Part shown: in pieces, positions 24,244 to 64,000 of the stretch | How the letters are laid out: each line of letters begins with the position of its first letter | Numbering within the stretch: position 1 is the stretch's first letter | Assembly: GCA_050950765.1 (NCBI GenBank) | Contig: JBMNIF010000001.1 | Location: forward strand, 288,001-352,000 | Length of the DNA stretch: 64,000 nt | Direction of reading: 5' to 3' | Source of the DNA: Bdellovibrionota bacterium | GTDB lineage: Bacteria > Bdellovibrionota_C > UBA2361 > JAAYZI01 | Notes under the pieces: generated by a model | What the model saw: the letters and a program-made list of their open reading frames with translations, nothing else | What the model was told of the DNA's origin: nothing | Databases searched by the model: none | Program-made: the position numbers and the translations under genes

Positions 24244-24269
24244 ATTTCTGGTGGCTGGGGGATTATTAA

Positions 24270-24992: not shown

Positions 24993-25002
24993 GAGGTTAA
25001 GG

Positions 25003-26727: not shown

Positions 26728-26728
26728 G

Positions 26729-28030
26729 ATGAGAAAATATTTTGATGAGATCTTGCAGATTAGTGGTAATGTCGTAACGGTGCGCGCCCCTGGTGTGGCT
26801 TATAATGAATTGGCGATGGTGATTTCAGATCACGGCTCCTCTTTGGCACAAGTAATTCAGTTGCAAGGTGACTTGGCGACGTTACAGGTCTTTCAAGGAT
26901 CGCGCGGGCTTTCAACGAGAGATCGTGTTAGATTTTTCGGTCGGCAGATGGAGTTCCCGTTCGGTGAGATGTTGCTGGGGCGTATCTTTGACGGCTCGGG
27001 ACAGCCGCGAGATGGGAAACCTGAAGTTGAAGGCGAATCTATTGTATTAGGTTCTCCTGCCGTAAATCCTGCCAAGCGTCTAATGCCTAATAAGATGGTA
27101 CGTACCGGTATCCCAATGATTGATGTTTTTAATTCATTGGTAGAGTCTCAAAAGCTTCCGATATTTTCCGTAGCGGGTGAGCCGTATAATGAGCTTTTAG
27201 CACGTGTCGGATTGCAGGCGAATGCAGATATTATCTTGTTAGGTGGGATCGGGCTTAGGCATGATGATTATCTTAAGTTTAGAAATGCTTTTGAGCAGGG
27301 CGGAGTTTTAGGTAGGTCTATTATGTTTTTGCATACGGCAGCAGATCCTGTTGTGGAAGCTCTGCTGGTGCCGGATCTCTGTTTGGCTGTTGGTGAACAG
27401 TTTGCTTTGCAGGGGAAAAAAGTTTTAGTGCTTCTTTCTGATATGACCTCTTTTGCAGATGCTTTAAAAGAGATCGCAATTATTATGGGGCAGGTGCCTT
27501 CTAATCGTGGTTATCCTGGAGATCTTTATACGCAGTTAGCGAGGCGTTATGAGAAAGCTGTTGATTTTGATGGCGCCGGATCTATGACGTTATTAACGTG
27601 CACGACGCTCCCAGGTGATGATGTTACTCATCCTGTGCCTGATAATACGGGGTATATTACTGAAGGGCAGTTCTATCTCCGTAACGGTCGTATTGAACCT
27701 TTCGGATCTCTCTCTCGATTAAAGCAGCAGGTGAACGGCAAGACTAGAAACGATCATAGAGCGATTATGGATGGTTGTATTCAGTTGTATGCGTTGTGTA
27801 AAGAGAGTCGTGAAAAACGGGATATGGGGTTTGAACTTTCTGAGTGGGATGCAAAATTGTTGAAATACGGGGAGAAATTCGAAGATGAGATTATGGATCT
27901 CTCCGTTAATATTCCGTTGGAAGAGGCGCTTGATCTGTGTTGGAGGATCTTAGCTGAATGTTTTTCACCGGAAGAAACAGGTATTCGTAGAAATCTGATT
28001 GAAGAGCATTGGTTGAAGACGGCGTGCTAA
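26729..28030 (+). CDS. V-type ATP synthase subunit B
   Basis: [30 protein letters not shown]. Confidence 0.96.
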
Positions 28031-28064
28031 AGTTTTTAGATCGGATCATGAGGTTGATTAGGTA

Positions 28065-28679
28065 ATGGCGCAACGATTGAATTTAACAAGACCTGAATTA
28101 AAGAGACAACGAGATCTACTACGTCGCTTCTCTCATTATCTGCCGATGCTAAAGTTGAAGTTGCAGATCTTACAGGTTGCTCTGCAAAAAACAGAAGCAC
28201 AATTCTTAAAAATACAAGATGAACTCTCTCTCTTGGAGACTCGCTTTAAAACGTATTCCACAATTATTAGAGAATGCAGCGGCGTGAATTTAGCGGCAGC
28301 GGTTAAGCCTTCTGAAATTAGGAAAGGTTATGAAAATATCGGCGGTGTTGAGGTGCCGTATTTTGAACAGGTTATTTTTGATCCAATAGAGTATGATCTT
28401 TTTGAAACTCCGGCTTGGGTTGATGGTGCTATACTTGATCTAAGGGAGTTTTCCGCTCTGCACGCTACGGAAGTGGTTCTGCATCAACGTTATGATATCT
28501 TAAAAAAAGAGTTAGCAAGGGCTTTACAACGGGTAAATCTTTTTGAAAAGGTCAAAATTCCAGCGGCGCAGGAAGCTATTAGAAGGATAAGAATTCAATT
28601 GGGTGATGAGATGGCAGCGGCTGTTGCTAGAGCTAAGGCGGCTAAAGCTAAGATTACGCAACGGGTGGATTATGATTGA
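28065..28679 (+). CDS. V-type ATP synthase subunit D
   Basis: YLPMLKLK, QRVNLFEKVKIP. Confidence 0.93.
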   Translation: MAQRLNLTRPELKRQRDLLRRFSHYLPMLKLKLQILQVALQKTEAQFLKIQDELSLLETRFKTYSTIIRECSGVNLAAAVKPSEIRKGYENIGGVEVPYFEQVIFDPIEYDLFETPAWVDGAILDLREFSALHATEVVLHQRYDILKKELARALQRVNLFEKVKIPAAQEAIRRIRIQLGDEMAAAVARAKAAKAKITQRVDYD

Positions 28680-30585
28680 ACCGATGTTAAAGATTTTCAT
28701 AGTGGCACGTTTCTCCGATAAGAAAGCTCTTGTCGCTGATCTGGGCAAGACGGGGGTTGTGCAACTGATCCCATTCGGAGAGGTAGAGAGTGAAGATCGC
28801 AAAAGTTTAGCGAAGCGATTAGAAGACCATGAAAAAGCTCTGAAAATTATTCAAACTTTGGAGCCTCTTAAAAAATCTGGCGTGGTTTCTGTTGAAAGTG
28901 TAGCGGATGAGATCTTAAGAAACAGTGCAGAAGTAGAGGTGTTGCAGAAAAATATAGATCTTTTAGAAGAGTCTTTAAAATCTCAAGAATTATGGGGAGA
29001 TCTTTCGCTACGAGATATTGAGAAGCTTAAAGGTGCTGGAGTAGAGGTTAGATTTTTTCGAATACCCTTTAAGACACCTCTTGATCTTCAAGGCGATGCA
29101 GTCGCTGATTGCGGAGCGCTTGATAAGACTTCAAAACTTCTCTTGGTAGTGAATCCTAAAGAACCGCTTCCGCAAGGTGTGCAAGAGTTGGTAGCGCCTG
29201 AAAAAGATAAGGCGTCTTTAGAGGCAGAGTTACTTGAAGCTCGTTCGAAGTTAGTTGAAGTTAAGGAGCGCTTAAGTGCTCTCGCTAATACGAAGGATGA
29301 CCTTTTACAAAAAGTTGAAGTTTTAAAAAATCGTTTAGCTTTTCAAAATGCCTTAGATGGTGGGCTAGGTGAAGGGGAGTTTTTTGCATTAAGTGGTTGG
29401 GTGCCTGCTAAAAAACAGGGGGTGGTTAAAGATCTATTACTTTCAAAAGATTGCTTCTATTACTTTGAGAAGCCGCAAGAAGATGAAGAGCCACCTGTTT
29501 TAATTACATATCCGAGATGGGCGCAGTCCATAGCTGGACTTTTTGATGCTTTAAATGTTGTGCCTGGTTATAGAGAGCCTGATATCTCTACTTATTTTAT
29601 GATTTTTTTACCGATCTTTGTAGCAATTATTATCGGGGATGCTGGTTATGGTTTTACACTGTTTGCCTTAGGAGTAATTTTCCGTAAAAAGATGTTGCAG
29701 GCAGCAGGGAAAGATAAGGTCGATTTATTATTTATCTTAAGTATTGTTACGATCATTTACGGCATATTATTCGGTTCGTACTTTGGATTTAGTCCGTTAG
29801 ATCTAGCTGATGCGGGAGGGTTTTCAGTCTATAACGGGACGGAGCTAGATGTCACAGCTACTATTAACGCTATGCAGAACGGGGAAGGGTTTGTAGCGTC
29901 CTTAGGGAGTATTATAACGTCTGCAGCGTTGTTGTGGAAACCGAGCGCTGATGGCTTTAGAAATCTTTTAACGGTGATTAGCTTTATCTTAGGGTGTAGC
30001 CACTTGGTGCTAGCACATCTGGTGCAAGTTATGAAACTTTTCCCATCGCAAGAAGCTTTGGCAGAGTTGGGATGGGCGATCTTTATCTGCGGTATGTTCG
30101 GTATTGTTTGGGGATTGTTTTTGCCGGATCGTCCTTTTATCGTTGGACAAAGTGGCGTTATCTTTATGCTTGCAAGTGGAGCACTCTTATCTGCCTGCTT
30201 TTCATGTCCGAATAGATCTTGGTTGGGGAGTAGGGTGCCTTGTGGTGTAGCAAGTTGTGCCTTATCTTGGATCGGAGCCTTCTCGGATATGGTGAGTTAT
30301 ATCCGTTTAATGGCAGTTGGATTATCCAGTTATTATATCACATCAATTGTAAATTTATTAGCAACAAAAACTTTTGAAGCGATGCCTGAAGTGGTTAGTG
30401 CGGGGATCGGTTTTGCGATTATCTTTATCGTTGGACATACTTTTAATATAGTGTTGGCGATGATCTCTATTTTGGCACACGGGGTGCGCTTAAATATGCT
30501 TGAATTTTCAAATAATGCCGGAGTGCAGTGGAGTGGAGTGAGTTATTCTCCATTTGTGCTACTTCGATCTAAAGGAGAATTGTAA
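28672..30585 (+). CDS. V-type ATP synthase subunit I
   Basis: PGYREPD, GDAGYG, SYIRLMAVGL, HGVRLNMLEF. Confidence 0.94.
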   Translation: MIEPMLKIFIVARFSDKKALVADLGKTGVVQLIPFGEVESEDRKSLAKRLEDHEKALKIIQTLEPLKKSGVVSVESVADEILRNSAEVEVLQKNIDLLEESLKSQELWGDLSLRDIEKLKGAGVEVRFFRIPFKTPLDLQGDAVADCGALDKTSKLLLVVNPKEPLPQGVQELVAPEKDKASLEAELLEARSKLVEVKERLSALANTKDDLLQKVEVLKNRLAFQNALDGGLGEGEFFALSGWVPAKKQGVVKDLLLSKDCFYYFEKPQEDEEPPVLITYPRWAQSIAGLFDALNVVPGYREPDISTYFMIFLPIFVAIIIGDAGYGFTLFALGVIFRKKMLQAAGKDKVDLLFILSIVTIIYGILFGSYFGFSPLDLADAGGFSVYNGTELDVTATINAMQNGEGFVASLGSIITSAALLWKPSADGFRNLLTVISFILGCSHLVLAHLVQVMKLFPSQEALAELGWAIFICGMFGIVWGLFLPDRPFIVGQSGVIFMLASGALLSACFSCPNRSWLGSRVPCGVASCALSWIGAFSDMVSYIRLMAVGLSSYYITSIVNLLATKTFEAMPEVVSAGIGFAIIFIVGHTFNIVLAMISILAHGVRLNMLEFSNNAGVQWSGVSYSPFVLLRSKGEL

Positions 30586-31217: not shown

Positions 31218-32783
31218 CCCAAACTTTCCCCTTTTTACGTATGTTAAGTAAGTAACAGTTCGGCTATTTTTAGCTCTGCTTTAGTTTGCTCGGCTAAATA
31301 CCAAGAGTCCCCAAGCCTAACTTTTTTAATTTCAGATAACCTTCTGATAGCATCTTCTAATGATATTGAAGTCGAAAGTTTATGTTTTTTTATTGTTTTT
31401 AATATTTCATAGCTCCACTGTATTGCTATGTGATTCACGAACATCCATCCCTGAAATTTATCATCATCACTCATATATGAAGCATCTGCTTTTAAAACAG
31501 TTTTTAACGTATCAAAAGATTGTTCAATAGATAGTCGCATTTTGTATAACGTGTATATTTCTTCTGCGGATGAGTCCAAATTTGAAAAGAATGCAACAGT
31601 TCCTAGCCTCACTTTTTTTAAATCAACATCTGTTAAATTGTATTTTTCTGGATGAGATATTGTTAATGAAACTAAGTTATTTTCCTCTTCACCTGCTAAA
31701 AACGGGTCTCTAAACAGATATATAAATCCATTCCCAATCTTATATTTTTTATATCTTAAGTACGTTTTATTATATTCAATAACGTTCCTGCTTGTTTCTA
31801 TTCCATCATAGTCTATAAGAGAGCTATTTCTACGCAATGGAATAACAAAGCTAAGTTTATTCTCTATAAGATCTTTAACGTTAGACTCTGAATAGAAACC
31901 CTTATCTGCAATAATAGTAGCATCACCAATTTCTGATTCTTGGATAGTTAAAGATAGAGCTTTTACATCTCTTATATTCCCAGCCAATAACCTATAATAG
32001 ACTGGTTGTTGCAATTTTTTAGAGTAAATATAAAGCAAACTCGCCTGCGTTTCCCAAAAATGGTCTTTATTATATCCTCCTTTAGCAAGACTCGACTTTC
32101 TCATAGATGTTCTAAGAAATGTAGAATCAATTAACAAAAAATCTTTTCCATGAATAAAACTCTTCATATATTCAGAACGAGCAAATTCATCTTTCCCAAT
32201 CGATTGCAAAATATTCGGAATAGCTTTCTTATTAAGAAGAAAATTAAGTTTTTCACTCAACATACTGTTTTCAAAATCATCATTCATGCGTTTAATAGGA
32301 GAGCAATGTTTGATCCTGCTGTATGACATCAGCAAAATAGCCTTCCACTTATCTGGAAAATAACACCGAAGTCTTTCAATAATTGTTTTTTGATTGAGGA
32401 TAAATTGAGATAAACCATACTCTCTGCACTTAATATTCACAGCAGGTACAAGGCTTCTCTTCTCACTTGGTATAAAACCGTCCTCTTCTGTAATTCGTCC
32501 AAGTAATTTACCAGTAACTTTCACGCTCCTTTTCCTCTCAGGGTCATACTTATAGCTGTAGCTATATAGGTAATATCTCCCATTGATAAGACGTACCTCT
32601 TTTCCTTTCTCTCGATATTTTGTTGCCCAATCAGGGTGTATTTTTGCTTTCTTTCCCATACCTAAATACGTATGTCAAAACAACAAAAAAGTCAACCCCC
32701 TTTTTTGTTAATTTTTAAAAAATTTCTATAGGTTATAACAATATGTTACTTTATTGTTACGTAAATCAACAGAAAAGTTTGGG
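31218..32783 (-). mobile_element. IS element (IS1634-like), 1566 bp
   Basis: Terminal inverted repeats CCCAAACTTT..TTTACGT at both ends; 6-bp target duplication ATTTAA at 31212-31217 and 32784-32789; AT-rich. Confidence 0.9.
31244..32659 (-). CDS. DDE transposase
   Basis: LLIDST, IIADKGFYS, YKMRLSIEQSFDTLK. Confidence 0.93.
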   Translation of the reverse strand: MGKKAKIHPDWATKYREKGKEVRLINGRYYLYSYSYKYDPERKRSVKVTGKLLGRITEEDGFIPSEKRSLVPAVNIKCREYGLSQFILNQKTIIERLRCYFPDKWKAILLMSYSRIKHCSPIKRMNDDFENSMLSEKLNFLLNKKAIPNILQSIGKDEFARSEYMKSFIHGKDFLLIDSTFLRTSMRKSSLAKGGYNKDHFWETQASLLYIYSKKLQQPVYYRLLAGNIRDVKALSLTIQESEIGDATIIADKGFYSESNVKDLIENKLSFVIPLRRNSSLIDYDGIETSRNVIEYNKTYLRYKKYKIGNGFIYLFRDPFLAGEEENNLVSLTISHPEKYNLTDVDLKKVRLGTVAFFSNLDSSAEEIYTLYKMRLSIEQSFDTLKTVLKADASYMSDDDKFQGWMFVNHIAIQWSYEILKTIKKHKLSTSISLEDAIRRLSEIKKVRLGDSWYLAEQTKAELKIAELLLT

Positions 32784-38461: not shown

Positions 38462-38648
38462 CAATTAGGACACCCACTTTTTACCCCGTCAAGATCTAGC
38501 CGATCCGCTTTGCAGTTGCAGCCCGTTCGGTTGTCCCTAGTGGGTGGCAGCAAATTTTTGACCTTCGTCCAGATCTAGCTGATTCATTTTTTAGTATCAG
38601 CCCGCTCGGTCGTTCCTAGTGGGTGGCAGTAGGTGTCTCGGATCCAAC
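38462..38648 (+). repeat. Degenerate Y/X/X modules of the GGGTGGCACCA repeat family
   Basis: CAATTAGGACACCCACTTTT followed by two X copies ending CCTAGTGGGTGGCAG. Confidence 0.85.
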
Positions 38649-38649
38649 C

Positions 38650-39171
38650 TTAACTAACAGCAACTTCTTTGTTTCCATTTATATTTTTAATGTATGCGAA
38701 TGCAGAAGTTAAAAAAGTTGATACATCCGTTATGAAAGCTGGATAAGCTTTGATATGAAAATCGAAGATACCCCAGAGAAAGACGCTGAGCATTAAAACA
38801 GCTCTCATATTTTGGACAGACTTTACGTAATAAGTTAAAATAATGAGCGACACTGAAGCGATTATGGGAAGAATGCCAATCCAAGAATTTTTATTAAAAT
38901 AAAGGCCAAATAATATGATAACTATGCATATAGCGAATGTTATAGTTTTAGTTAATTTACCCGTTACTTCTAAAATATGCCTAATTGCCATAGATGAATT
39001 AGCAATAAATCCTGAATAGCCACCTAAAACAAGGTTAGAGAGTGCACAGAACGTGCAAGTTAAAGATATTAGCGTGATCATTTTTTTCTTGTTTTTACTA
39101 AATATAGAAAAAAGAAGAAAAGTAGCACCAGTAAAAGATAAAACCTGACCTAATAGAAATAACTTGTTCAT
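38650..39171 (-). CDS. YgjV-like inner membrane protein
   Basis: Small multi-TM protein, LGGYSG, GILPIIAS; AT-rich. Confidence 0.7.
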   Translation of the reverse strand: MNKLFLLGQVLSFTGATFLLFSIFSKNKKKMITLISLTCTFCALSNLVLGGYSGFIANSSMAIRHILEVTGKLTKTITFAICIVIILFGLYFNKNSWIGILPIIASVSLIILTYYVKSVQNMRAVLMLSVFLWGIFDFHIKAYPAFITDVSTFLTSAFAYIKNINGNKEVAVS

Positions 39172-39242
39172 AACTTAAATAGCCCTTAATAAAAAATAAT
39201 GTATAGCTTAATATAAATGATTTTTTAAAAATAGAGAGGGAT

Positions 39243-40268
39243 CGTCCCTAAAGGGTAGTACCAAATTTTTGACCTAATTAGGACACCCACTTTTACTGGT
39301 GGGTGGCACCAAATTTTTAACCCCCGTAGAGACCTAGCCGATTCGGTTTTTAGTTGCAGCCCGTCCAACCGTCCCTAAAGGGTGGCACCAGATCCAAGCT
39401 TCGTTTCACCGCTCCGCTGCCAATTAGGACACCCACTTTTACTGGTGGGTGGCACCAACGCCCTAAAGGGTGGCACCAAAACTGCCGAATTCTAGCTTTT
39501 GCTAACGTCTTGATATTATTGAATGTTGCGATTTTGAAGTTTGGATGTCCTATTTGCAGAACGTCTGCGACGCTAGTGGGTGGCACCAACGACAGCCCCC
39601 GACAAAGAAGGGTGGCACCAAAACTGTCGAATTCTAGCTTTTGCTAACGTCTTGATATTATTGAATGTTGCGATTTTGAAGTTTGGATGTCCTATTTGCA
39701 GAACGTCTGCGACGCTAAAGGGTGGCACCAAATTTTTAACCCCCGTAGAGACCTAACCAATTTGTTTTTTAGTTACAGCCCGTTCGGCTGTCCCTAGTGG
39801 GTTCAACCGTCCCTAAAGGGTGGCACCAAAACTGTCGAATTCTAGCTTTTGCTAACGTCTTGATATTATTGAATATTGCGATTTTGAAGTTTGGATGTCC
39901 TATTTGCAGAACGTCTGCGACGCTAAAGGGTGGCACCAAATTTTTAACCTCCGTAGAGACCTAGCCGATTCGGTTTTTAGTTGCAGCCCGTCCAACCGTC
40001 CCTAAAGGGTGGCACCAGATCCAAGCTTCGTTTCACCGCTCCGCTGCCAATTAGGACACCCACTTTTACTGGTGGGTGGCACCAAATTTTTACCCACAAA
40101 GACAAAGAAGGGTGGCACCAAATTTCCCCCGACAAAGAAGGGTGGCACCAGATCCAAGCCCAGCCAAATCTGCCTAAAGTGGTGGGTGGCACCAAATTTT
40201 TAACCCCCCCTAGAGACCTAGCCGATTCGGTTTTTAGTTGCACCCCGTTCGGCTGTCCCTAGTGGGTG
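39243..40268 (+). repeat. Mosaic repeat array: 14 perfect GGGTGGCACCA cores joined by reused modules
   Basis: Cores at about 39301, 39380, 39447, 39468, 39578, 39610, 39720, 39818, 39928, 40007, 40074, 40110, 40140, 40184. Confidence 0.95.
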
Positions 40269-55422: not shown

Positions 55423-56478
55423 TTAACCTTGAAATGCTGCTGCTGGCATAAAATCTTCATCTGAAATCGAATCAGTTGGTAACGTCTCACTGATATATTG
55501 AACCAGATATTTAGATCTCTCTGAAAAACAATCAGCACTTTCCAGATCCCAATCGGTTATCTGAGTATAGACGATACACTCTCTATTTCTAAGGAGGGGT
55601 AGTACTCCGCAGAATGATAGACCGTGATCTTCTAAATACTGGCAAAAGTCAGGGCAGGATGGGTCTTTCATACTGACGAAAAAGAGGTTTGGAACTGATG
55701 GCGAAAGATAATCGCTAATAACATTAAAATTAGTAAGTAGACTCGGAGTTATATATACATGAGAAAAACCTTGTCCGTAATATCTGCGAGCTTCGCAAGC
55801 TCTAATATCGGTTGGAACTGCAAAATATTCACCAGCGACTGATTGAAAAGACCTCTTTAGTCCACTTCCGTTATAGAGATACTTACAAGCTTCAAGGTGC
55901 TTTTGTGGAACGTATAAAGTTTCTGTCTCGGAAGGAATTTGAGATTGAGGGGAGAGGATTTTTTGAGCGAAAATAGCGTTTCGTCTTTTGGTGATATCTT
56001 TTGATTGTGGAGCTGCTCTGAAATAGTGGGGGAAGATAGCAGTTTCGAGTAGTCCGAAGGTATCACTCGCCACCTGTTGATAGCGACGCTCTTTAGACAT
56101 CAATAAGGCGTAAACACTACTCCAACGGTGACGCTCCGCCTGTTTTTTTACCATCTGCCAAGCCACCTCAGCCAGTTGGTCAATAAGGTAGAGGTGTTGA
56201 GGGTCTACTGCTGGAAAAGTTACTTGCACACTGTTACTTAGTTTACGATCTGGTTGAATGGCGAGGTGTGCGATGATTTTATTATTCATCAAAGCTAAGA
56301 TGCTGGAGAAGCGGGTACTAATTCGTCTACTCCAAAATTGCATATCATAAACGCCCTGTTCTGGAAAACTTTGACCGTATTCTGCCGTGAAAAGTTTGAT
56401 GATATTACGAATCTCAATTTCATTATCGGGGTTTCCTGCTTTTATACGAACATCTTTTAACTCATTATTCTGCTGCAT
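55423..56478 (-). CDS. Hypothetical protein, possible GNAT-like fold
   Basis: 351-aa ORF; IIAHLAI, AVDPQH, GLSFCGVLP. Confidence 0.6.
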   Translation of the reverse strand: MQQNNELKDVRIKAGNPDNEIEIRNIIKLFTAEYGQSFPEQGVYDMQFWSRRISTRFSSILALMNNKIIAHLAIQPDRKLSNSVQVTFPAVDPQHLYLIDQLAEVAWQMVKKQAERHRWSSVYALLMSKERRYQQVASDTFGLLETAIFPHYFRAAPQSKDITKRRNAIFAQKILSPQSQIPSETETLYVPQKHLEACKYLYNGSGLKRSFQSVAGEYFAVPTDIRACEARRYYGQGFSHVYITPSLLTNFNVISDYLSPSVPNLFFVSMKDPSCPDFCQYLEDHGLSFCGVLPLLRNRECIVYTQITDWDLESADCFSERSKYLVQYISETLPTDSISDEDFMPAAAFQG

Positions 56479-56839
56479 AGGGCAAAAGCCTCTCTCAAAT
56501 ACGTATTGTCTAAATTAAAATAGATATCTTTATATTTTTTAGAGTAGTTCGAGAGAATCAAACTTGCTACTCTTATCAAAGCTTCTTTTTGGTGTTAAAA
56601 CCTTCCCGTTACACCGTGCAACAGACTCAAGCAGATGGCAAAGAGGCACGAAAAACGGTTAACGTCATATTGTTGGCAATTCTATTTTGCCATTACGTTT
56701 ATTGCAATGTAGTATAGGCAAATATGTAGATTGAACTCAAATTGGGCGTAAAAAACATTGTAATAATAACTTATTATCCACAGAATGATCGTTCAAGGGG
56801 TCTCTCTTTTAATTAGGAAAAGATCATAGGAAAAGATTA

Positions 56840-58507
56840 GTGGCTGAAAAATTAAAGGGAAATACAAAAGGCTTATCTCTCTCTCAGATTAAGAGGGTGG
56901 AGAAGCTTTTTAATAGAAAAATTCAACAAGATGAGGTTGTATCTCCTGAGTTTGCGCGAGAGCTTTATGAGGCGGCAGAGAGTTTAGGGCGACGCATCGG
57001 TGTCTTGATAACAAGGGAAGGAGAGATTGCAGAGGTTATTTTAGGCACTAAAAATATTATATATCTCCCCGATCTTGGACGCTCTCGTTTAGGGGGTGCT
57101 CGTTTGCGACGCTTACGTTTCGTTTTTAGCGATCTCTCTATCAATGCAAAGCAAGTTATCCCGTCTGATGTCTATATTGACTTGGAAAAATTAAGGTTAG
57201 ATCTAGTGGCGGGCGTTAAGGTGGAGAAAGGCAAGGTTAGACTTGCTTACGCTTATAACGTACCGGAGAGGGGGGCTGATAATCGTGCAGTTAAAACGGA
57301 AGTAATTGAAAATTTAGCTGCGGGCACCCTTAATTTTTCGGAATTTATTGAAAACTTGGAAGGGGAGTTCTCTCGGAAAAGTTTACATGTAGCGCAAGGA
57401 AAAGATCGGGCTGTTCTTGTAGGGGTGTATCCTAAGAATGCTAAAAATGTAGAAGATTCGATGAACGAATTGCAGGAGCTGGCAAAAACGGCGGGTGTGC
57501 AAGTTATAGATAAGATCTTTCAGCGCAGGGATCCGGATCCGCGAACGTTACTTGGAAAGGGAAAACTTGAAGAGGTGGTCCTGCACTGTTTGCGGTGTGA
57601 TGCGGAGATTATTATTTTTGATACTGAATTAACGCCGTCACAGTGGCGAGTTATTACAAATAGTACGGATCTGCGTGTCTTGGATCGCAGTATGTTGATC
57701 TTAGATATCTTCTCTCAACGTGCAAGGAGTAGTGACGGACGTTTACAGGTGGAGTTAGCGCAATTAAAATATAATTTACCACGTTTAGTAGAAAAAGATG
57801 CGGGGCTTTCTCGTTTAACAGGTGGAATCGGTGGTAGAGGTCCAGGGGAAACGAAATTAGAGATTGGGCGGCGTCGTTCGAGAGAAAAAATTCGTGATAT
57901 AGAATTACAGATAGAGAAGTTTGCTAAGCAGCGAGCTTTAAAAAGACAGCAACGTAACATAAAAGAGATCCCGTTGGTGGCGTTACTCGGATACACCAAT
58001 GTTGGAAAGTCCACTCTCTTTAACGCATTAACAGATAGCTCCGTTCTGGCAGAGTCAAAACTTTTTGCCACCTTAGATCTTTCGCAGCGTAGATTGTTTC
58101 TGCCTGCTGTTGCGGAGGATGTTGATGGTGAAGGAAAAGCTATTTTTGAGGATCGGGGACGTACTGTAATTTTAGTTGATACGGTAGGGTTTATTCGAGA
58201 CCTGCCGGAGGAATTAACAGTTGCGTTTAAAGCCACTCTGGAAGAGGCGGAGGGAGCAGCGCTACTGTTGCATGTGCTGGATGCTTCAGATCCGGAGATC
58301 GCTTTAAGAAAACAGGCGGTAGATAAAATTATCTCGGATATGAATTTAGCGGATACTCCGCAGTTGATAGTTTTAAATAAAACGGATCGGATTTCAGAAG
58401 AGGAGGCTACTTTATTAGAAAAAGAGTATGGTGCCGTTGCAGTTTCTGCCTTATCAAAAAAAGGTCTGCCACTATTGTTAGGCAAGTTGGGAAGTTGCCT
58501 TAAGTAG
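56840..58507 (+). CDS. hflX: GTPase HflX (long form with N-terminal extension)
   Basis: LQVELAQL, GGRGPGETKLE, GYTNVGKS, LFATLD, DTVGFI, NKTD. Confidence 0.96.
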   Translation: MAEKLKGNTKGLSLSQIKRVEKLFNRKIQQDEVVSPEFARELYEAAESLGRRIGVLITREGEIAEVILGTKNIIYLPDLGRSRLGGARLRRLRFVFSDLSINAKQVIPSDVYIDLEKLRLDLVAGVKVEKGKVRLAYAYNVPERGADNRAVKTEVIENLAAGTLNFSEFIENLEGEFSRKSLHVAQGKDRAVLVGVYPKNAKNVEDSMNELQELAKTAGVQVIDKIFQRRDPDPRTLLGKGKLEEVVLHCLRCDAEIIIFDTELTPSQWRVITNSTDLRVLDRSMLILDIFSQRARSSDGRLQVELAQLKYNLPRLVEKDAGLSRLTGGIGGRGPGETKLEIGRRRSREKIRDIELQIEKFAKQRALKRQQRNIKEIPLVALLGYTNVGKSTLFNALTDSSVLAESKLFATLDLSQRRLFLPAVAEDVDGEGKAIFEDRGRTVILVDTVGFIRDLPEELTVAFKATLEEAEGAALLLHVLDASDPEIALRKQAVDKIISDMNLADTPQLIVLNKTDRISEEEATLLEKEYGAVAVSALSKKGLPLLLGKLGSCLK

Positions 58508-58572
58508 GGTGTTGCCCACCTTCTGATTTAGGCTTTGTAGTCAGTGCCACTTATGTTTTTAGAGGTAAGATT

Positions 58573-58912
58573 TTAAACTTTTTACAATTAAATTACTTAA
58601 ATAAGTTAAGGGCGTTAGCGACCGCTTAAGGCTTGGCTAAGAGTGGGTGTGTCTTTTTTGGGATATAAACGTGTTGCCTTAAAAATAAATTAGACTAAGA
58701 GGAGGAGTTGAAGTACTATCCTAGTGGCGATCTTTTTCTAAAGATTAAAAAATTAGTTAAGTAGAAGAGAAAAAATAAAGTGCTCTCGCATGACAGTTTT
58801 TATATCTCTGTGATGTGAGGGCGCACGGCAAAAATAAAGGTAATTTAGAAAGGTTTTTATACTGCTTGCGTGTCTCTCTATGGCAGCTCCTAAAAGTGTT
58901 AATGGAGCTATT
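58573..58912 (+). repeat. Array module copy 1 (leader half only)
   Basis: TTAAACTTTTTACAATT..GGAGCTATT shared with later copies. Confidence 0.92.
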
Positions 58913-58945
58913 ACATCCATAACCTTGTTCATAAAGGAAACTATC

Positions 58946-59053
58946 ATGAACGTGAAAAGATTAGAAGACACCGTGCTTTTAGGCGGTGGCGGGTTTGAAA
59001 ACATGGAAAGATGAGAGAGCTGCGCGTTGCGCAACAACGCTCTAATTGAGTAA
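58946..59053 (+). pseudogene. Array slot 1: short or remnant ORF (22 aa, then TGA; same frame continues to TAA at the module start)
   Basis: AAGGA SD; MNVKRLEDTVLLGGGGFENMER*ESCALRNNALIE*. Confidence 0.5.
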
Positions 59054-59627
59054 ACCATCGTGCGATGGTTGTTTTCCGCAAAAACTGATTAGGAAAGGAG
59101 GTAATATGAGGTTAGAGAGCCAGAGAGGGAATGTAATCTTAACTCTGGCTCTCACCTGATAGGTTTCAAGTGTTTGCTGTGTGGCTCTCTAACCTTTTTA
59201 ATCTTCTTTAATCTTCATCTATAAGGTGTGTCTTTTTTTCTTTCATCGTGTGTTCTGCTTCTACAATTAAGGACGCTTAAACTTTACATTAAACTTTTTA
59301 CAATTAAATTACTTAAATAAGTTAAGGGCGTTAGGGATCGCTTAAGGCTTGGGTAAGAGAGGGTGTTTCTTTTTTTGGGATATAAATTAAAATTAGACTA
59401 AGAAGAAGGGATGGAATAAGATCCTGCCGGTGATCTTTATCTAAAGTTCCCCTAAAGATTAAAAAATTAGTTAGGTAGAAGAGAAAAAATAAAGTGCTCT
59501 CGCATGACAGTTTTTATATCTCTGTGATGGGAGGGCACACGGCAAAAATAAAGGTAATTTAGAAAGGTTTTATACTGCTTGCGTGCACCTCTCTATGGCA
59601 GCTCCTAAAAGTGTTAATGGAGCTATT
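59046..59627 (+). repeat. Array module copy 2
   Basis: GAGTAAACCATCG..GGAGCTATT, near-identical to copies 3-5. Confidence 0.95.
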
Positions 59628-59672
59628 TTCGGTAAAAACTCTTTTATAAGATTCCTTAGGAGGTACTTAACT

Positions 59673-60178
59673 ATGGATACTAAAAGAGAACGCCAACGGA
59701 AATTGTTGGAGAAAGCATGGGAAGAAAACCCAGCTCTGTTTGTTTATTGTTTGGTCATTGTGGTTGCTGAGAAAGCTCTCAAACTTGTGGGTAACAACAA
59801 TTTCGAAAGCCCAGTCTTACCAAGATCGCCTGACAACGAAGGCGAGTTTGCAATTGAACTGTGTCGAGTTAAAGAAGGTGTGGTTGTGAACTGCAAAGGT
59901 CAATCCGCACCATTCTTCGACTACAAGTTCCCGCGATCAGCGCTCGACTTTCTGTTCAAAATTGGTTCGGATGTGTTGTTGACGTTGATGATGAACGCCC
60001 CCCAGATTGCTGCGCAGCGACCCTTGAGGAACAAAATACAAAAAACCTGCGTGTATTTATTCTGTTCGCCAGACAACTGCAGAGTGATAAGAAATCCTTA
60101 GCTCAATTCGTTCTGCAGTTCGCGGATCCCCTTGAGAAGATGTTGTCTACCTTCCTCGTAAAAGCAAAAACTGATTAG
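59673..60178 (+). CDS. Array slot 2 orphan (142 aa to 60101; probable frameshift, -1 frame open to 60178)
   Basis: AGGAGG SD, ATG 59673; -1 frame reads NLRVFILFARQL..KAKTD* and ends inside the next module. Confidence 0.7.
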
Positions 60179-60704
60179 GAAAGGAGGTAATATGAGGTTA
60201 GAGAGCCAGAGGGGAGATGTAATCTTACTCTGGCTCTCACCTGATAGGTTTCAAGTGTTTGCTGTGTGGCTCTCTAACCTTTTTAATCTTCATCTATAAG
60301 GTGTGTCTTTTTTTTCTTTTATCTTGTGTTCTGCTTCTACAATTAAGGACGCTTAAACTTTACATTAAACTTTTTACAATTAAATTACTTAAATAAGTTA
60401 AGGGCGTTAGCGACCGCTTAAGGCTTGGGTAAGAGTGGGTGTGTCTTTTTTTGGGGATATAAATTAAAATTAGACTAAGAAGAAGGGATGGAATAAGATC
60501 CTGCCGGTGATCTTTATCTAAAGTTCCCCTAAAGATTAAAAAATTAGTTAGGTAGAAGAGAAAAAATAAAGTGCTCTCGCATGACAGTTTTTATACCTCT
60601 GTGATGGGAGGGCACACGGCAAAAATAAAGGTAATTTAGAAAGGTTTTATACTGCTTGCGTGCACCTCTCTATGGCAGCTCCTAAAAGTGTTAAAGGAGC
60701 TATT
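60164..60704 (+). repeat. Array module copy 3
   Basis: GCAAAAACTGATTAGG..GGAGCTATT. Confidence 0.95.
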
Positions 60705-60744
60705 ACATCCATAACCTTTTTATAAGATCCTCTAGGAGGTGACT

Positions 60745-61209
60745 ATGCGTAACATCAGAGGAGAGCTCCAATGGGAATTGTTGGAGAAAGCGCGGGAAGA
60801 CAGGGAATGCTTGGGGGACTCGTCTTCCCGAGAAGAGGCCCAAAAAGCGGTTTTCAGGCTCTTTGGGGTTCTTGAGGAATATGAGCTCAGGGGAGACGCC
60901 AAGTTTACGTTTCTCCGTAGCAGAAAGTTGAAAGTCGACTTTGATGGCGGAGGCTCTACTGGGGTAGTGCATATATTCTTCCGCAATCCTGATACGAACG
61001 AGAAGATCCTTCACGTCGGAATTATGCGTGAAACGCTTGGATTCATGCTTGCGAATTTGAAGGGCTCAAAGCCTAATGAGTTTGATGGACTCTTTAAAAA
61101 ATACAAGAACAGCCTGAACAACCTCCTCATTTTCGCCGTATCACTGGAGATAGCGGAGATCGTGGAGCTGCTTAATGAAGCTCTCGATTCCCGTGATTCC
61201 GTTGAGTAG
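60745..61209 (+). CDS. Array slot 3 orphan (154 aa)
   Basis: AGGAGG SD; stop TAG lies in the module start; N-terminus related to slot 2. Confidence 0.8.
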   Translation: MRNIRGELQWELLEKAREDRECLGDSSSREEAQKAVFRLFGVLEEYELRGDAKFTFLRSRKLKVDFDGGGSTGVVHIFFRNPDTNEKILHVGIMRETLGFMLANLKGSKPNEFDGLFKKYKNSLNNLLIFAVSLEIAEIVELLNEALDSRDSVE

Positions 61210-61756
61210 ACCATCGTGCGATGGTGGTCCGCAAGAACTGATTGTAGAAAAGGTGATAAAGAGCCAGAGGGAGTATGCAATCTTAACTCTGGCTCTCACC
61301 TGATAGGTTTCAAGTGTTTGCTGTGTGGCTCTCTAACCTTTTAATCTTCATCTATAAAGCGTGGCTTTTTTTATCTTGTGATCTGCTTCTACAATTAAGG
61401 ACGCTTAAACTTTACATTAAACTTTTTACAATTGAATTACTTAAATAAGTTAAGGGCGTTAGCGACCGCTTAAGGTTTGGGTAAGAGTGGGTGTGTCTTT
61501 TTTTTAGATATAAATTAAAATTAGACTAAGAAGAAGGGATGGAATAAGATCCTGCCGGTGATCTTTATCTAAAGTTCCCCTAAAGATTAAAAAATTAGTT
61601 AGGTAGAAGAGAAAAAATAAAGTGCTCTCGCATGACAGTTTTTATATCTCTGTGATGGGAGGGCACACGGCAAAAATAAAGGTAATTTAGAAAGGTTTTT
61701 ATACTGCTTGCGTGCACCTCTCTATGGCAGCTCCTAAAAGTGTTAAAGGAGCTATT
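61202..61756 (+). repeat. Array module copy 4
   Basis: TTGAGTAGACCATCG..GGAGCTATT. Confidence 0.95.
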
Positions 61757-61789
61757 TTCGGTAAAAACTCTGATGTTAGGAGTTAGGAT

Positions 61790-62650
61790 ATGACTAAAAG
61801 TAGAAGTAATTCGACACCTAAGCCAGACTTGGGTCAGTGGTTGGCAGATGTGCGAACACAGGTGTCAAAATTCGAGGAAGCGCTAAGAGAAGCCGTAAGT
61901 AATCTGCTGGAACTCCTTAACCAAGTACCAGAAGAGGCACAACAACAGGCATCGGAAGCGTCGGAAGAACAGGCTTTGGAGCAGGAGCTAAAACAGACGC
62001 TGGAATCTTTGCTGGAACAGCTGCAACAGGCGTCAGGAGCAGAGGCGCTGGCAGATATGCTGGCAAAGGGAAGCGAGCTGATGAGCACTCAGTTGCAGAA
62101 TCGGCTGATGGCAACGATGGGATGGCTAATACATGGAAATGTATCAATGTCGACGCTAATCCAAGCGCTGCCGCTGCTATCGGAAAAAGAGCTGCAGCTT
62201 CAACTAGTACTTAAAGCTGGGTTGATACTGAGAAAACGACTGCTTCTGCAACAACTGCTGGAAAAGGCGGAAGAGATGCAGAAGGAGTTAAAACCTCGAG
62301 CACAGGAAAGCTTACTTCCCTCTCTCGCAATCCTTGCATTGGTTGGGGAGGTTGCAGCAAGTGCTTTGAAGAGAAGTGACTACCATGAGGATACGAAGAT
62401 CTCCGTACCTTTTGGGGACAACCCTCAAGAGCAATTCGAAATCAACATCACGTTTGCCACGCTTCGCCTTGTAGGGGAAACGGGGTGGGACATTTTATTG
62501 ATGTCGTTGCTCCTCGAAGAAAAATCTTATGAAGTCACTCTCAGATCGAGTAGCCAGCAAAGTCTACAAGAACTTCGTTCTCTCGCCGAACAAGTGGATC
62601 CAGAATTGGCGAAGCAGTTGATCACTGCTTTCGTAGAGCGGATCTCATAG
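61790..62650 (+). CDS. Array slot 4 orphan (286 aa, L/E/Q-rich helical)
   Basis: AGGAG SD; long ORF between modules. Confidence 0.82.
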   Translation: MTKSRSNSTPKPDLGQWLADVRTQVSKFEEALREAVSNLLELLNQVPEEAQQQASEASEEQALEQELKQTLESLLEQLQQASGAEALADMLAKGSELMSTQLQNRLMATMGWLIHGNVSMSTLIQALPLLSEKELQLQLVLKAGLILRKRLLLQQLLEKAEEMQKELKPRAQESLLPSLAILALVGEVAASALKRSDYHEDTKISVPFGDNPQEQFEINITFATLRLVGETGWDILLMSLLLEEKSYEVTLRSSSQQSLQELRSLAEQVDPELAKQLITAFVERIS

Positions 62651-62685
62651 TGACTCGAGTCCTTGATTGTTAGTGCTCTTGCTGC

Positions 62686-63198
62686 GTAGACCATCGCGCG
62701 ATGGTTGTTTTCCGCAAAAACTGATTAGGAAAGGAGGTAATATGAGGTTAGAGAGCCAGAGGGAGTATGTAATCTTAACTCTGGCTCTCACCTGATAGGT
62801 TTCAAGTGTTTGCTGTGTGGCTCTCTAACCTTTTAATCTTTATCTATAAGGTGCGTCTTTTTTCTTTTATCTTGTGATCTGCTTCTACAATTAAGGACGC
62901 TTAAACTTTACATTAAACTTTTTACAATTAAATTACTTAAATAAGTTAAGGGCGTTAGGGCCGCTTAAGGCTTGGGTTAAGAGTGGGTGTGCCTTTTTTT
63001 TAGATATAAACGTGTTGCCTTAAAAATAAATTAGACTAAGGGGAGGAGTTGGAGTAAAGTCGTGGTGATAGTCTTCTCCCTGAAGATTAGAAAAAATTTG
63101 GTTAAGTAGAAGAAAAAGTAAGTGTTCTCTCATGACAGTTTTTTACATCTCTGTGATGGGAGAACACGGCGAAAACAAAAGGTAGAAAGGTTTTTATA
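62686..63198 (+). repeat. Array module copy 5 (3' part diverged)
   Basis: GTAGACCATCGCGCGATGG..GAAAGGTTTTTATA. Confidence 0.92.
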
Positions 63199-63316
63199 TA
63201 GTTTATGTTCTCCAAAAAAAATCGTTAAAGACAGCTTCTGTAATATGAATTTGCAGTAAGCTAGTCTGTCACCTTGTTCAACTTCCTTTTGCACTTATGT
63301 GCTGGAAAGGACTTTC

Positions 63317-63781
63317 ATGCAAAAGACGTTTCAGCCACCGGAAACGAAAAAGACCACTTCTCAAGTATTCCTTCACCTTCTCATGGAAATTCTGGGATTC
63401 TTGAACCAAATTGAGCCTAGTGCCGATACCCCCGTTGTTTTGTTGTGCCAAAGGCAAGATGGGAATACGCTGGCGGAAATCACGGCTGAAAAGCCTAACG
63501 CCTCGAAATACATCCTGCGCGCCAAACACGGCAATGACACTTTTACCTTTTCACTTTCTCTCGACCTGCTTGAAGAACTTTGCAAAAAGAGTTCGGACGG
63601 ATTGGAAGAATTGGCGAAAGAAATTGAGCGTGCCCGTCGGGTCCGTCGGGAAAAGGTATCGGGAAAGTGTACTGTGGCGGATGGAATCTTGGCAAAGCTT
63701 CTTCCGTTGATGGATCGAATGGACAATGCCGGTCTTCTGCGTAAGTTGGGTAATGGCTTTAAGATCGTCAAAGAAAGTTGA
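63317..63781 (+). CDS. Array slot 5 orphan (154 aa)
   Basis: AAGGA SD before ATG 63317; same orientation as the other slots. Confidence 0.75.
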   Translation: MQKTFQPPETKKTTSQVFLHLLMEILGFLNQIEPSADTPVVLLCQRQDGNTLAEITAEKPNASKYILRAKHGNDTFTFSLSLDLLEELCKKSSDGLEELAKEIERARRVRREKVSGKCTVADGILAKLLPLMDRMDNAGLLRKLGNGFKIVKES

Positions 63782-63864
63782 CCTTCCATTCCTGTAGCCA
63801 CTAACTAGAAAGGAGGAAAATCCAGTTTAGTGACGAAGGGGGAAATTGAAAGAAAGTTGAAAAA

Positions 63865-63963
63865 GGCTAGCGGTGTCATGACAGAATCTTTTGGATACGA
63901 TTTAATTGGTGATTAGGGGGATTAAGGGGGAATTGAGATGGCTAGCGGTGTCATGACAGAATC
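63865..63963. repeat. 24-bp direct repeat x2 containing the palindrome TGTCATGACA
   Basis: GGCTAGCGGTGTCATGACAGAATC at 63865 and 63940. Confidence 0.85.
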
Positions 63964-64000
63964 CTCAAATGACGATCACCAAAAAGGGGGAAGAGGTTGG

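Follow-up and report, generated by a model that had tools for sequence, protein, structure and literature searches.

Orphan genes between conserved leaders and trailers: a candidate cassette array downstream of hflX in a Bdellovibrionota bacterium

The array and its repeated unit

We describe here an array of co-oriented open reading frames (ORFs), each set between conserved non-coding flanks, in a 64,000-nucleotide stretch of the genome of a Bdellovibrionota bacterium (assembly GCA_050950765.1, contig JBMNIF010000001.1, positions 288,001 to 352,000 of the forward strand). This whole stretch is hereafter the window, and its own numbering is used unless a contig is named. The genome comprises 2.64 Mb in five contigs, C1 to C5, at 40% GC and 94% completeness, and the window lies on C1. 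The array is bounded by two housekeeping genes, hflX on the left and a rubrerythrin-like gene on the right (C1:352299-352877, just past the window end), and consists of five copies of a non-coding module of 0.44–0.67 kb, 78–98% alike, alternating with ORFs that occupy slots 0 to 4. Its parts are laid out as follows.

56840..58507 (+): hflX, the left anchor, 555 aa (Pfam GTP-bdg_N 6.5e-29, GTP-bdg_M 3.8e-26, MMR_HSR1 1.8e-17)
58573..58946 (+): leader U0 (alignment; 86% identity to module positions 202-562)
58947..59014 (+): slot 0 ORF, 22 aa, or 44 aa from a conserved ATG at 58880 (ORF list)
59015..59672 (+): module U1, trailer of unit 0 and leader of unit 1 (repeats, BLASTN, alignment)
59673..60101 (+): slot 1 ORF, 142 aa, LLEKA at residue 11 (ORF list, motif scan)
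60102..60744 (+): module U2, trailer of unit 1 (without hairpin 1) and leader of unit 2 (repeats, BLASTN, alignment)
60745..61209 (+): slot 2 ORF, 154 aa, LLEKA at residue 12 (ORF list, motif scan)
61210..61789 (+): module U3 (repeats, BLASTN, alignment)
61790..62650 (+): slot 3 ORF, 286 aa, LLEKA at residue 156 (ORF list, motif scan)
62651..63316 (+): module U4, its trailer 97% like that of U1 (trailers 1 and 4), its leader 77-79% like the others
63317..63781 (+): slot 4 ORF, 154 aa, the last unit, without trailer and without LLE[KR]A (ORF list)
63794..64000 (+): right anchor, unique sequence upstream of the rubrerythrin-like gene (sequence, ORF; RNA-library contigs present)

A repeat finder run on 56000–64000 returned 13 direct-repeat families that tile one common module, and no inverted repeat of at least 30 nt. 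With the module copy at 60164–60738 as BLASTN query against the whole genome, module copies were recovered (E-values 6e-125 to 0) at 58573–58934 (86% identity, module positions 202–562 only, that is, the leader half), 59078–59662 (94%), 61257–61756 (95%) and 62714–63194 (84%), together with two opposite-strand pieces outside the window, at C1:51730–52008 (78%) and C1:50777–50830 (91%). The five copies, their positions and the ORF sizes of 22, 142 (or more), 154, 286 and 154 aa that a first-pass annotation of the window had given were reproduced, and its placement of the array downstream of hflX is borne out by the three Pfam domains. The same annotation had described conservation here as the reverse of normal, and so it is: the leaders, ~375 nt long, are 91–98% identical pairwise among U0 to U3 and 77–79% identical between U4 and these four, while the slot ORFs have no significant BLASTP or TBLASTN similarity to one another or elsewhere in the genome. 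The sole exception at the DNA level is a 40-nt stretch, 85% alike, at the starts of slots 1 and 2 (repeat family D13). The slots are also, as had been noticed, richer in GC than the module, at 0.45–0.49 overall with 200-nt windows reaching 0.53, against 0.31–0.39 for module windows and 0.40 for the genome.

What the repeated entity is becomes clear from a sixth, solo unit at C1:50744–52008, 295 kb from the array. It holds a single 246-aa ORF (C1:51650–50910, minus strand), with the 3' two-thirds of the module upstream of it (leader, 78%) and the 5' third downstream (trailer, 70–91%). Because the module is here split around an ORF, the repeated entity is the two flanks of a gene and not an inserted element: every unit has an ORF at its centre, a conserved leader on the 5' side and a conserved trailer on the 3' side, and the module of the array is one unit's trailer abutting the next unit's leader. 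Two further features fit a unit of this kind, namely that the first array copy is leader only, leader U0 lacking a trailer because no unit precedes it, and that in three units, those of slots 0 and 2 and the solo one, the trailer starts at the stop codon, TAG or TAA followed by ACCATCG. A profile search of the genome gave six full leaders and five trailers, five of each set being contiguous, and no other full-length copy. The repeat that the first-pass annotation took as its unit is thus real, and the unit itself has to be redrawn. Slot 0, with its very short ORF, is probably the remnant of a cassette.

Conserved structures of the leader and the trailer

The flanks carry a small set of recurrent elements, of which the following copies serve as examples.

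60347..60445 (+): diverged copy of a dispersed promoter-like element, ~85 nt, at the leader start (nhmmer; same segment in every leader)
60571..60615 (+): leader hairpin A, 15 pairs, in all six leaders (alignment fold)
60677..60701 (+): second leader hairpin, AGCUCC...GGAGCU, ahead of the ribosome-binding site and at the exact 3' limit of the conserved module (alignment fold)
59053..59070 (+): trailer hairpin 1, 7 bp (GACCAUC-loop-GAUGGUU, then UGUUUU), at or next to the slot stop codon (fold)
59110..59199 (+): trailer structure 2, a 15-bp long-range stem (GGUUAGAGAGCC...GGCUCUCUAACC) with inner hairpins, then a U run
59106..59159 (+): mini-ORF of 17 codons with a strong Shine-Dalgarno sequence (AAGGAGGTAATATG), inside trailer structure 2 (read from the sequence)

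The start of the leader is related to a repeat that is dispersed over the genome. Leader positions 7–81 match C1:423983 and C3:497404 by nhmmer, and the first ~90 nt, set against six long-form copies of the repeat, are collinear with them, agreeing at 45–50 of 89 positions for the array copy and at 45–55 of 88 for the solo copy. The core of the dispersed element, A[AG]AGTGGGTGT(CC), is matched at 123 places in the genome, frequently together with TGGTGCCACCC[AT][CT]CAG and CTAATAATATCA boxes; the long form, of ~85 nt, has a TAATAT box and inverted ends (GGACACCCA...TGGGTGTCC). Long-form copies lie 62–716 nt upstream of co-oriented ORFs in seven cases out of ten, lepA-like and phosphofructokinase-like genes among them. 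From this placement we infer that the element may be a portable promoter-like element, and the putative promoter of the units. Hexamers of the sigma-70 type (TTTACA-16-TAAATT) occur in three of the five leaders, in a scan that found fewer promoter-like sites here than in shuffled sequence; promoters for sigma-28 and sigma-54 were considered and rejected, no consensus being visible by eye. The dispersed repeat is met elsewhere in the window too, for example at ~38480–40066 (C1:326480–328066), its leader copies lying at 58640, 60432, 61484 and 62980. Six identical-scoring ORFs of 332–350 aa with a Y1 (HUH) transposase domain are present elsewhere in the genome (C2:7795, C2:892855, C2:1186722, C3:211452, C5:8074 and C1:184936); these could supply the enzyme behind dispersed hairpin-type repeats, and no link between them and the array was seen.

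Further into the leader, the changes in hairpin A are one-sided (U-G to U-A), so that pairing is preserved on the + strand only. The second hairpin stands ~45–75 nt before the start codon and comes, by eye, in three versions, that of the array, that of U4 (AGCUUCUG...CAGUAAGCU) and that of the solo unit (AGCCCCUGUGG...CCACGGGAGCU). Each ORF has its own ribosome-binding site of the GGAGG type. A conserved ATG upstream of the second hairpin was tried as the start of an upstream ORF (uORF) and rejected, as it is absent in U4 and its peptide differs in the solo unit. Rfam gave no match at gathering score over the whole window and, at E <= 5 on 58400–64000, two chance matches to microRNA models only.

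The trailer, of ~190–270 nt, has two terminator-like hairpins. Hairpin 1 is met again at ~61212–61229, at ~62689–62706 and in the solo trailer, but not after slot 1; the alignment fold keeps it in four of five sequences, with one U-A to U-G change in the solo copy that leaves pairing intact on the + strand only. Trailer structure 2 has a fold z of -2.4, and its stem is kept in all five trailers of the alignment fold; in the solo trailer, by eye, the inner hairpin reads GAGUCA/UGACUC in place of GAGCCA/UGGCUC. To judge by their form, the two hairpins would terminate transcription. Copies of the mini-ORF inside structure 2 (peptide MRLESQR..VILTLALT) lie at 59106–59159, 60192–60299 and 62742–62795. 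The frame is kept in two of these (59106 and 62742) and shifted at 60192, and the start is missing from the copy at 61210 and from the solo unit; a leader peptide or small toxin was rejected on this ground, and the mini-ORF is probably not a conserved peptide. A 10-nt duplication, TTAATCTTCT, at 59197 in trailer 1 is absent in part of the public DNA run X5 (depth 3.64 of 15) and is a within-sample polymorphism.

The variable ORFs and their proteins

The slot ORFs are real coding sequences, because codon scoring ranks frame 0 first in each of the five substantive ORFs, because a full-length allele of slot 4 at 90% identity exists, and because a protein motif is kept through synonymous codons. 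At third codon positions their GC (GC3) is 0.49–0.57, with z = +3.3 to +5.1 relative to 996 long genomic ORFs, where it is 0.347 +/- 0.044. The motif, LLE[KR]A followed by x-E, is found in four of the five substantive proteins, at residue 11 or 12 in slot 1, slot 2 and the solo unit and at residue 156 in slot 3. Of the 2131 ORFs in the genome that reach 100 aa, 12 have LLE[KR]A, these four included, and a hidden Markov model (HMM) of the N-terminal 40 residues around the motif finds only these four among all six-frame ORFs of the genome. The codons of the motif differ synonymously (TTG/CTG, GAG/GAA, AAA/AAG/AGG, GCA/GCG). Four proteins that share a motif in this manner point to one fast-diverging family and not to unrelated captures.

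Resemblance outside the motif is slighter. The N-terminal half of slot 3 is acidic and helical; its C-terminal half begins at LLEKA and is weakly like slot 1 (z = 4.5, none of 300 shuffles as good, two collinear BLASTP segments). Slots 2 and 4 compare at z = 2.7 with a BLASTP E of 7.6, and when the five proteins were aligned together a single column was invariant and no block was convincing. AlphaFold2 (AF2) models of slot 4 (pLDDT 71, pTM 0.66) and of slot 2 (pLDDT 50, poor) have their elements in the same order, N-terminal helices, a four-strand meander and C-terminal helices, which weakly suggests a common fold for the two. The slot 4 model found nothing better than E = 0.05 in Foldseek and Z = 5.0 in VIA-align (YopQ, 77 residues), under the noise level.

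By database search the proteins are orphans. Slot 3 found only itself among 8000 candidates that were scored out of 5.8 billion clusters. Exhaustive HMMER with slot 2 over 1.84 billion representatives returned itself and two repeat-protein matches (E 7e-5 or weaker), and the search with slot 4 returned itself and the 90% allele, which is in another assembly. All five proteins sit in 90% clusters of one sequence, the second member in the case of slot 1 being the same protein with a longer start call; for slot 1 and the solo protein the sequence-database evidence consists of exact cluster look-up only. The uORF-extended N-terminus of slot 1 (residues 1–40 of P0006) gave two candidates, neither scored. 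None of the five proteins had a match in Pfam, PHROGs or PADLOC past the curated cut-off or E <= 0.001, and Pfam at E <= 0.1 added only sub-threshold matches to unrelated families. In the ESM Atlas, slot 3 and the solo protein had no feature matches, and their neighbours stayed at a TM of 0.40 or less except for one 70-residue helical stretch, all of them falling below the bar; the commonest neighbours in both lists, histidine-kinase ATPase-domain clusters (TM 0.25–0.37), were not counted. With these searches and the slot 4 model empty of a clear match, the effector, immunity or anti-phage roles proposed in the first-pass annotation gain no support. Our guess would be that the proteins act by interaction under conflict-type selection, with the N-terminal helix as a common handle.

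Mosaic flanks and differences between strains

Within the array, the module copies are mosaics of one another. Among the 21 parsimony-informative sites of the five copies, nine distinct two-copy partitions occur. In mid-leader, a 14-nt insertion and ten substitutions are common to U0 and U4; alternative 3' tails link U0 with U2 and U1 with U3; and the ribosome-binding-site region is common to U1 and U2, as are the first 20 codons. Where homology ends varies among unit pairs, with no single crossover site. Variable ends of this sort are the mark of homologous exchange or gene conversion and not of recombination at one fixed point, and exchange would thus appear to be homologous rather than site-specific. 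The enzymes encoded nearby give the same picture as before, in that the annotation had reported no integrase, reverse transcriptase or cas gene in the window, and a comparison of its 39 ORFs of at least 150 aa with NCBIfam likewise finds none of these and one IS1634 transposase. Beyond the window, where the annotation had advised looking for a recombinase or reverse transcriptase, PF00589 (Phage_integrase) has three matches in the whole genome, on C2 and C3 and none on C1, and no reverse transcriptase (RVT_1) is present anywhere in it. A diversity-generating retroelement was therefore rejected, there being no RVT_1 match and only 10 of the 25 differences in slot 1 (described below) falling at A, where adenine-specific change would be expected of such an element. 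CRISPR was rejected as well, with no Cas protein among the 39 ORFs.

Public sequencing runs allow the slots to be compared between strains. All or part of the locus is present in 24 runs under 20 study codes, mostly bioreactor, digester and sludge metagenomes, with eight metatranscriptomes. Four runs were compared over the region, the RNA runs X7 and X9 (different study codes) and the DNA runs X5 and X8, all as assembled contigs, from which starts, ends, strand and expression levels are not readable. The X5 contigs reproduce every slot and the module edges with no difference (records 2–8). The order of the units rests on one assembly, no contig spanning two slots, and the five slot proteins were found on one to five contigs from up to three sources.

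Every slot is represented in RNA-library contigs: slot 0 at 58883–59091 (X7, with an X5 DNA contig of the same span), slot 1 from 59557 or 59598 to 60145, slot 2 at 60876–61247, slot 3 at 61685–62727 and slot 4 at 63198–63827. On the 700 nt of hflX that were compared, on the other hand, contigs of both DNA runs are present and RNA-library contigs are not, an absence that is weak evidence. Presence of all slots but not of hflX fits transcription over carried-over DNA. RNA-library contigs are absent from the module cores as well (59249–59455, 60284–60697, 61319–61525 and 62768–63181), where absence of cover is not evidence; RNA runs contained at most 0.47 of the sampled words, the five best DNA runs 0.83–0.88. 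At slot 4 the contigs of X7 and X9 both start at 63198/63199, where a DNA contig runs on from 63003, and this hints, weakly, at the 5' end of an RNA; the contigs of other units start further upstream.

The differences between strains are confined to the slots, two of which vary. The slot 1 contigs of X7 and X9, and of X8 where covered, carry 21–25 differences in ~550 nt and a CC insertion at 59997, and the contigs of slots 0, 2, 3 and 4 show no difference alongside this 4.5%-divergent allele. In the frame of the window the changes comprise 19 non-synonymous and four synonymous ones; over codons 1–108 (11 non-synonymous, three synonymous) dN/dS is 1.02, and the CC insertion shifts the frame to give an ORF of 121 aa. 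That one slot diverges and its neighbours do not is a pointer to imported DNA, with recombination in the flanks. In slot 4 the coding part itself appears to be exchanged.

63222..63793 (+): stretch replaced by other sequence between the same flanks (X7, X9 and X8 contigs)

Here contigs of X7 and X9 connect 63221/63227, within the leader, to 63794, which lies 13 nt beyond the stop codon. The joints have short sides (23 and 30 letters), and the X7 record is 747 nt long, with only 184 nt to the right of the joint; a DNA contig of X8 has 218 unlike letters directly before 63794. The simplest reading is that co-occurring strains hold a different cassette of ~540 nt in place of slot 4, between the same flanks. 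The comparison of slot content across runs, which the first-pass annotation had put forward as a check, thus turned up variation in both allele and content. A 701-nt DNA contig of X8, in addition, closes on itself (60365–60614, then 58824–59141, then 60227–60359), in the order leader (U2-type), slot 0, trailer and leader start; it could be a circle, a tandem copy, a unit between identical leaders or a cycle in the assembly graph.

Distribution

The array looks specific to the species or genus. The module was sought in 40 relatives, with one weak 59-nt match (E = 5e-4) and none besides; exact-pattern scans of JGI metagenome contigs (two), GTDB species genomes (one) and IMG/VR (two) gave no match, and BLASTN against phage records gave none, although these module searches do not show that sister strains are without the module. 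hflX is found in all 13 genomes searched, its own and 12 relatives, while a search for related loci with HflX as query gave nothing. Nine hflX-downstream stretches from relatives have no repeat array, which carries little weight as HflX identity is only 52–61%.

How the array may evolve

On balance we think it moderately probable that self-contained expression cassettes stand here in a row, all of one lineage-specific and very fast-evolving family, and that their flanks drive homologous exchange. Each unit would comprise a leader with a promoter-like element, two hairpins and a strong ribosome-binding site, then the variable ORF, then a trailer with two terminator-like hairpins. The long, near-identical flanks would act as portable homology, offering a large target to general recombination, and homologous recombination and gene conversion, both between units and between strains, would keep them uniform. 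Coding parts could thereby be exchanged, replaced, lost (as in the slot 0 remnant) or duplicated (as in the solo unit), while neighbouring transcription would be left undisturbed, each cassette being insulated, and they may diverge under weak constraint or diversifying selection. Of the two possibilities raised in the first-pass annotation, a rapidly diversifying family shuffled by recombination thus fits much better, given the mosaic copies, the slot 1 allele and the slot 4 replacement, though without support for the roles suggested for it. A gene-capture array is not supported, given a contig free of a recombinase, the variable homology ends and the kinship of the ORFs through LLE[KR]A.

Several observations weigh against this cassette reading. 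No recombination event has been seen directly, and purifying selection alone could keep the flanks alike. Slot 1 looks unconstrained, so that at least one cassette may be decaying and not diversifying. The slot 4 replacement rests on the short joint sides of 23 and 30 letters and on one loose end in DNA. RNA-library contigs fall on slot-specific DNA only, so that the transcription start, the long leader and termination in the trailer are predictions; if the module core is untranscribed, the conservation of hairpins on the + strand is left without explanation. The GC3 excess shared by all slots is not explained by the cassette model either. Protein similarity beyond the motif is weak, the best z of 4.5 coming from 15 comparisons, and slot 4, with neither motif nor trailer and with the most divergent leader, may not belong to the family at all.

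The main competing view, which we hold to be unlikely but deserving of serious attention, is that of ordinary tandem paralogues, an old family duplicated in place, whose coding parts drift or diversify and whose flanks are functional DNA or RNA kept by purifying selection and some gene conversion, without any exchange of cassettes; strain differences would then be ordinary mutation and deletion. The motif in four of five ORFs, the similar sizes of slots 1, 2 and 4, the shared order of elements in two AF2 models, the conserved structures of the flanks and the lack of a recombinase all sit well with it. What tells against it is the pattern of divergence: a slot 1 that differs by 4.5% while the other four slots are identical speaks of imported DNA and not of clock-like mutation, unlike sequence takes the place of slot 4 with the flanks kept, the flanks are incompatible mosaics, and 375 nt at 91–98% beside ORFs that are dissimilar as DNA are hard to obtain by selection alone. 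A slot 1 with dN/dS near 1 and a frameshifted allele, a slot 0 of only 22 aa, a slot 2 model at pLDDT 50 and homologues found nowhere could, on the other hand, mean that the slots are decaying fragments of a dead element or of dead genes, the RNA read-through noise and the flanks a recently amplified repeat. We think this improbable, since in DNA rich in stop codons frames of 142–286 codons stay open, all on one strand, codon scores speak for the ORF frame, the motif is kept through synonymous changes, slot 4 has a full-length allele at 90% identity, and RNA-library contigs cover all slots and not hflX.

Site-specific gene capture of an integron-like or rAID-like kind (see below), with an attachment site in the module and a recombinase encoded elsewhere, appears to us quite improbable. 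The co-oriented array, its repeated intergenic DNA and compositionally odd orphan ORFs, and hairpins at both edges of the variable part speak for capture. The self-closing contig of X8 is as expected of an excised circle, and three tyrosine recombinases and six Y1-transposase-domain ORFs do exist elsewhere in the genome. However, no recombinase lies in the window or beside either locus and the homology ends vary; the module is 4–10 times the length of an integron attC site, a promoter-like element comes with every unit and the ORFs are kin to one another; and the closed contig may equally be a de Bruijn graph product of a unit between identical leaders. That the module is a non-autonomous mobile element, a miniature inverted-repeat transposable element (MITE) or a remnant of an insertion sequence (IS), inserted repeatedly between existing genes, we regard as very improbable, even though the leader start is related to a dispersed repeat whose core motif has 123 matches. 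The module has no inverted repeat of at least 30 nt; BLASTN and profiles give six leaders and five trailers, five of each in the array, so that the scattered IS or MITE against which the first-pass annotation had cautioned is not what is found; the trailer includes the stop codon; and an ORF stands between the leader and the trailer of the solo unit. MITE-like insertion is ruled out by this last point, because an inserted block of trailer plus leader cannot end split around an ORF. An assembly artefact, a collapsed or mis-joined repeat, would be compatible with the lack of a contig across two slots and seems to us extremely improbable, with X5 contigs matching every slot-module junction without difference, the genome in five contigs, and the slot proteins recovered from several contigs and sources.

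A bolder version of the cassette reading can be put forward, although we would call it unlikely. Here the system, independent of any recombinase or served by an unknown one, would consist, in a free-living bacterium, of a population-wide 0.5-kb 'socket' and a large, quickly renewed pool of GC-rich orphan genes swapped between strains. The socket would be made of the double terminator, the portable promoter and the structured leader, so that a gene plugged into it might be expressed in isolation, and the LLE[KR]A helix could serve all the proteins as one handle, used, for instance, in delivery or to bind a partner that they have in common. If this were true, the locus would be a chromosomal counterpart of the shuffling described for phage stem-loop cassettes, and could be one case of a general, undescribed way to keep and trade accessory genes. 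If the cassette reading itself is true, conserved flanks, and not a dedicated recombinase, make a chromosomal site an exchange point for new genes; exchange driven by flanks is shown for T4-type phages and hardly documented in bacterial chromosomes. The locus would also be tractable for studying the evolution of orphan genes, with six units, identical expression signals, coding parts whose likeness is lost but for one short motif, alleles among co-occurring strains and support from metatranscriptomes, and the flanks could be used as primer sites to amplify the variable pool from bioreactor samples. If the reading is not true, we are left with a small lineage-specific paralogue family with well-kept regulatory DNA, of local interest only.

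Relation to known systems

Integrons are arrays of co-oriented, compact cassettes with hairpin-forming repeats, whose orphan ORFs are often odd in composition, and attC clusters without intI exist too. Their attC sites are imperfect palindromes of ~55–150 bp with RYYYAAC...GTTRRRY cores and one precise crossover, and the cassettes are promoterless, being expressed from Pc. The present locus shares with them the co-oriented array, the repeated hairpin-forming DNA and the odd orphan ORFs. It differs in having no intI (PF00589 being on C2 and C3 only) and in the relatedness of its ORFs, and would seem to differ in its repeat of 440–670 bp, several-fold longer than attC, in its variable homology ends and in the promoter-like element of each unit. 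The long stem of the trailer, GTTAGAG...CTCTAAC, is, as read by eye, the reverse of the attC core arrangement. In Borrelia burgdorferi, the gene family ospE/ospF/erp is said to have been described, in 1996 and in 2000, as having a conserved upstream non-coding homology box (UHB); these genes reportedly lie on multiple prophage plasmids and encode lipoproteins with recognisable homology, recombination making new variants. A variable family with a conserved upstream non-coding box would be common to both, whereas the conserved 3' trailer and the tandem layout set the present array apart, neither being known from the Borrelia family. MITE and IS repeats, marked by terminal inverted repeats, target-site duplications and scattered copies, are unlike the array in that it has neither inverted repeats of at least 30 nt nor scattered copies.

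Among described systems the closest analogue would seem to be the promoter-early stem-loop (PeSL) cassette of T4-type phages. In the parts of Arbiol et al. (2010, PMC2839356) drawn on here, a PeSL is a terminator-like stem-loop and promoter of ~100 bp between a stop codon and the next ATG; the ORFs that PeSLs flank are database orphans, and it is to them that differences between close relatives map. The mechanism proposed in these parts is homologous recombination between the repeats, with the cassettes transcriptionally insulated, and minicircles are shown. By its sequence, the present array may resemble this arrangement, with predicted hairpins followed by U runs and a putative promoter-like element between a stop codon and the next start; its module flanks orphan ORFs, to which the slot 1 allele and the slot 4 replacement map. 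As far as the same parts of that account go, the array differs from PeSLs in its module of 440–670 bp, about five times as long, with a long structured leader, and in being chromosomal, PeSLs of ~100 bp being found in phage hyperplastic regions. It differs further in that its ORFs share an N-terminal motif. For the minicircles of PeSLs, the array has the ambiguous 701-nt contig of X8. It lies, moreover, between hflX and a rubrerythrin-like gene, with no match in phage records or IMG/VR.

Phage morons, as characterised in the same parts of PMC2839356, are single genes with their own promoter and terminator, independent of conserved flanks. The array units have promoter-like and terminator-like signals of their own, as morons do, and unlike morons they have flanks that are their most conserved part, to go by that characterisation. 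The recombinase-associated locus rAID-1 of Bacteroidales, of the acquired interbacterial defence (AID) type, consists, in the portion of Ross et al. (bioRxiv 10.1101/471110) used here, of co-oriented small genes with skewed GC and repetitive intergenic DNA, present in metatranscriptomes and variable between strains. That portion defines rAID-1 by a 5' XerD-like recombinase and homologues of known immunity families, with GC at or below 41%. The array has at least two co-oriented genes, skewed GC and repetitive intergenic DNA as well, its skew being opposite, that is, GC-richer than the genome. Against the definition in that portion of the preprint, its 5' neighbour is hflX, no recombinase lies on the contig, and no immunity-family match was found with Pfam, PADLOC or PHROGs. 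A word search of the literature on PeSL, AID/rAID, the Borrelia upstream homology box and orphan genes or tandem or intergenic repeats in Bdellovibrionota yielded no description of such a locus in these bacteria, which is not proof of absence.

Neighbouring features

The right anchor contains a 25-nt direct repeat (GGCTAGCGGTGTCATGACAGAATC) at 63866–63890 and 63940–63965, upstream of the rubrerythrin-like gene. Both copies contain the perfect palindrome TGTCATGACA, RNA-library contigs cover the pair, and by its form the pair looks like a putative operator pair. A half-site of the palindrome, CATGACAG, is present in leader hairpin A too. To the left, divergent from hflX, stands an ORF of 351 aa (55423–56478, minus strand) with no Pfam match at E <= 0.1, and further left the IS1634-family transposase gene at 31244–32659 (minus strand; NCBIfam 2.2e-42).

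A V-type ATPase operon occupies 23635–30585, its best models being NF002555 (PRK02118, subunit B), NF002565 and NF002170, with NF002555 scoring 699 bits against a cut-off of 431 bits. We take these three models to be of the chlamydia type, which would presumably be an unusual combination here. A TLC nucleotide transporter was not found in the genome, nor in any control genome, so that its absence is uninformative. The operon adjoins genes for flagellar rod and ring proteins and nuoH-N.

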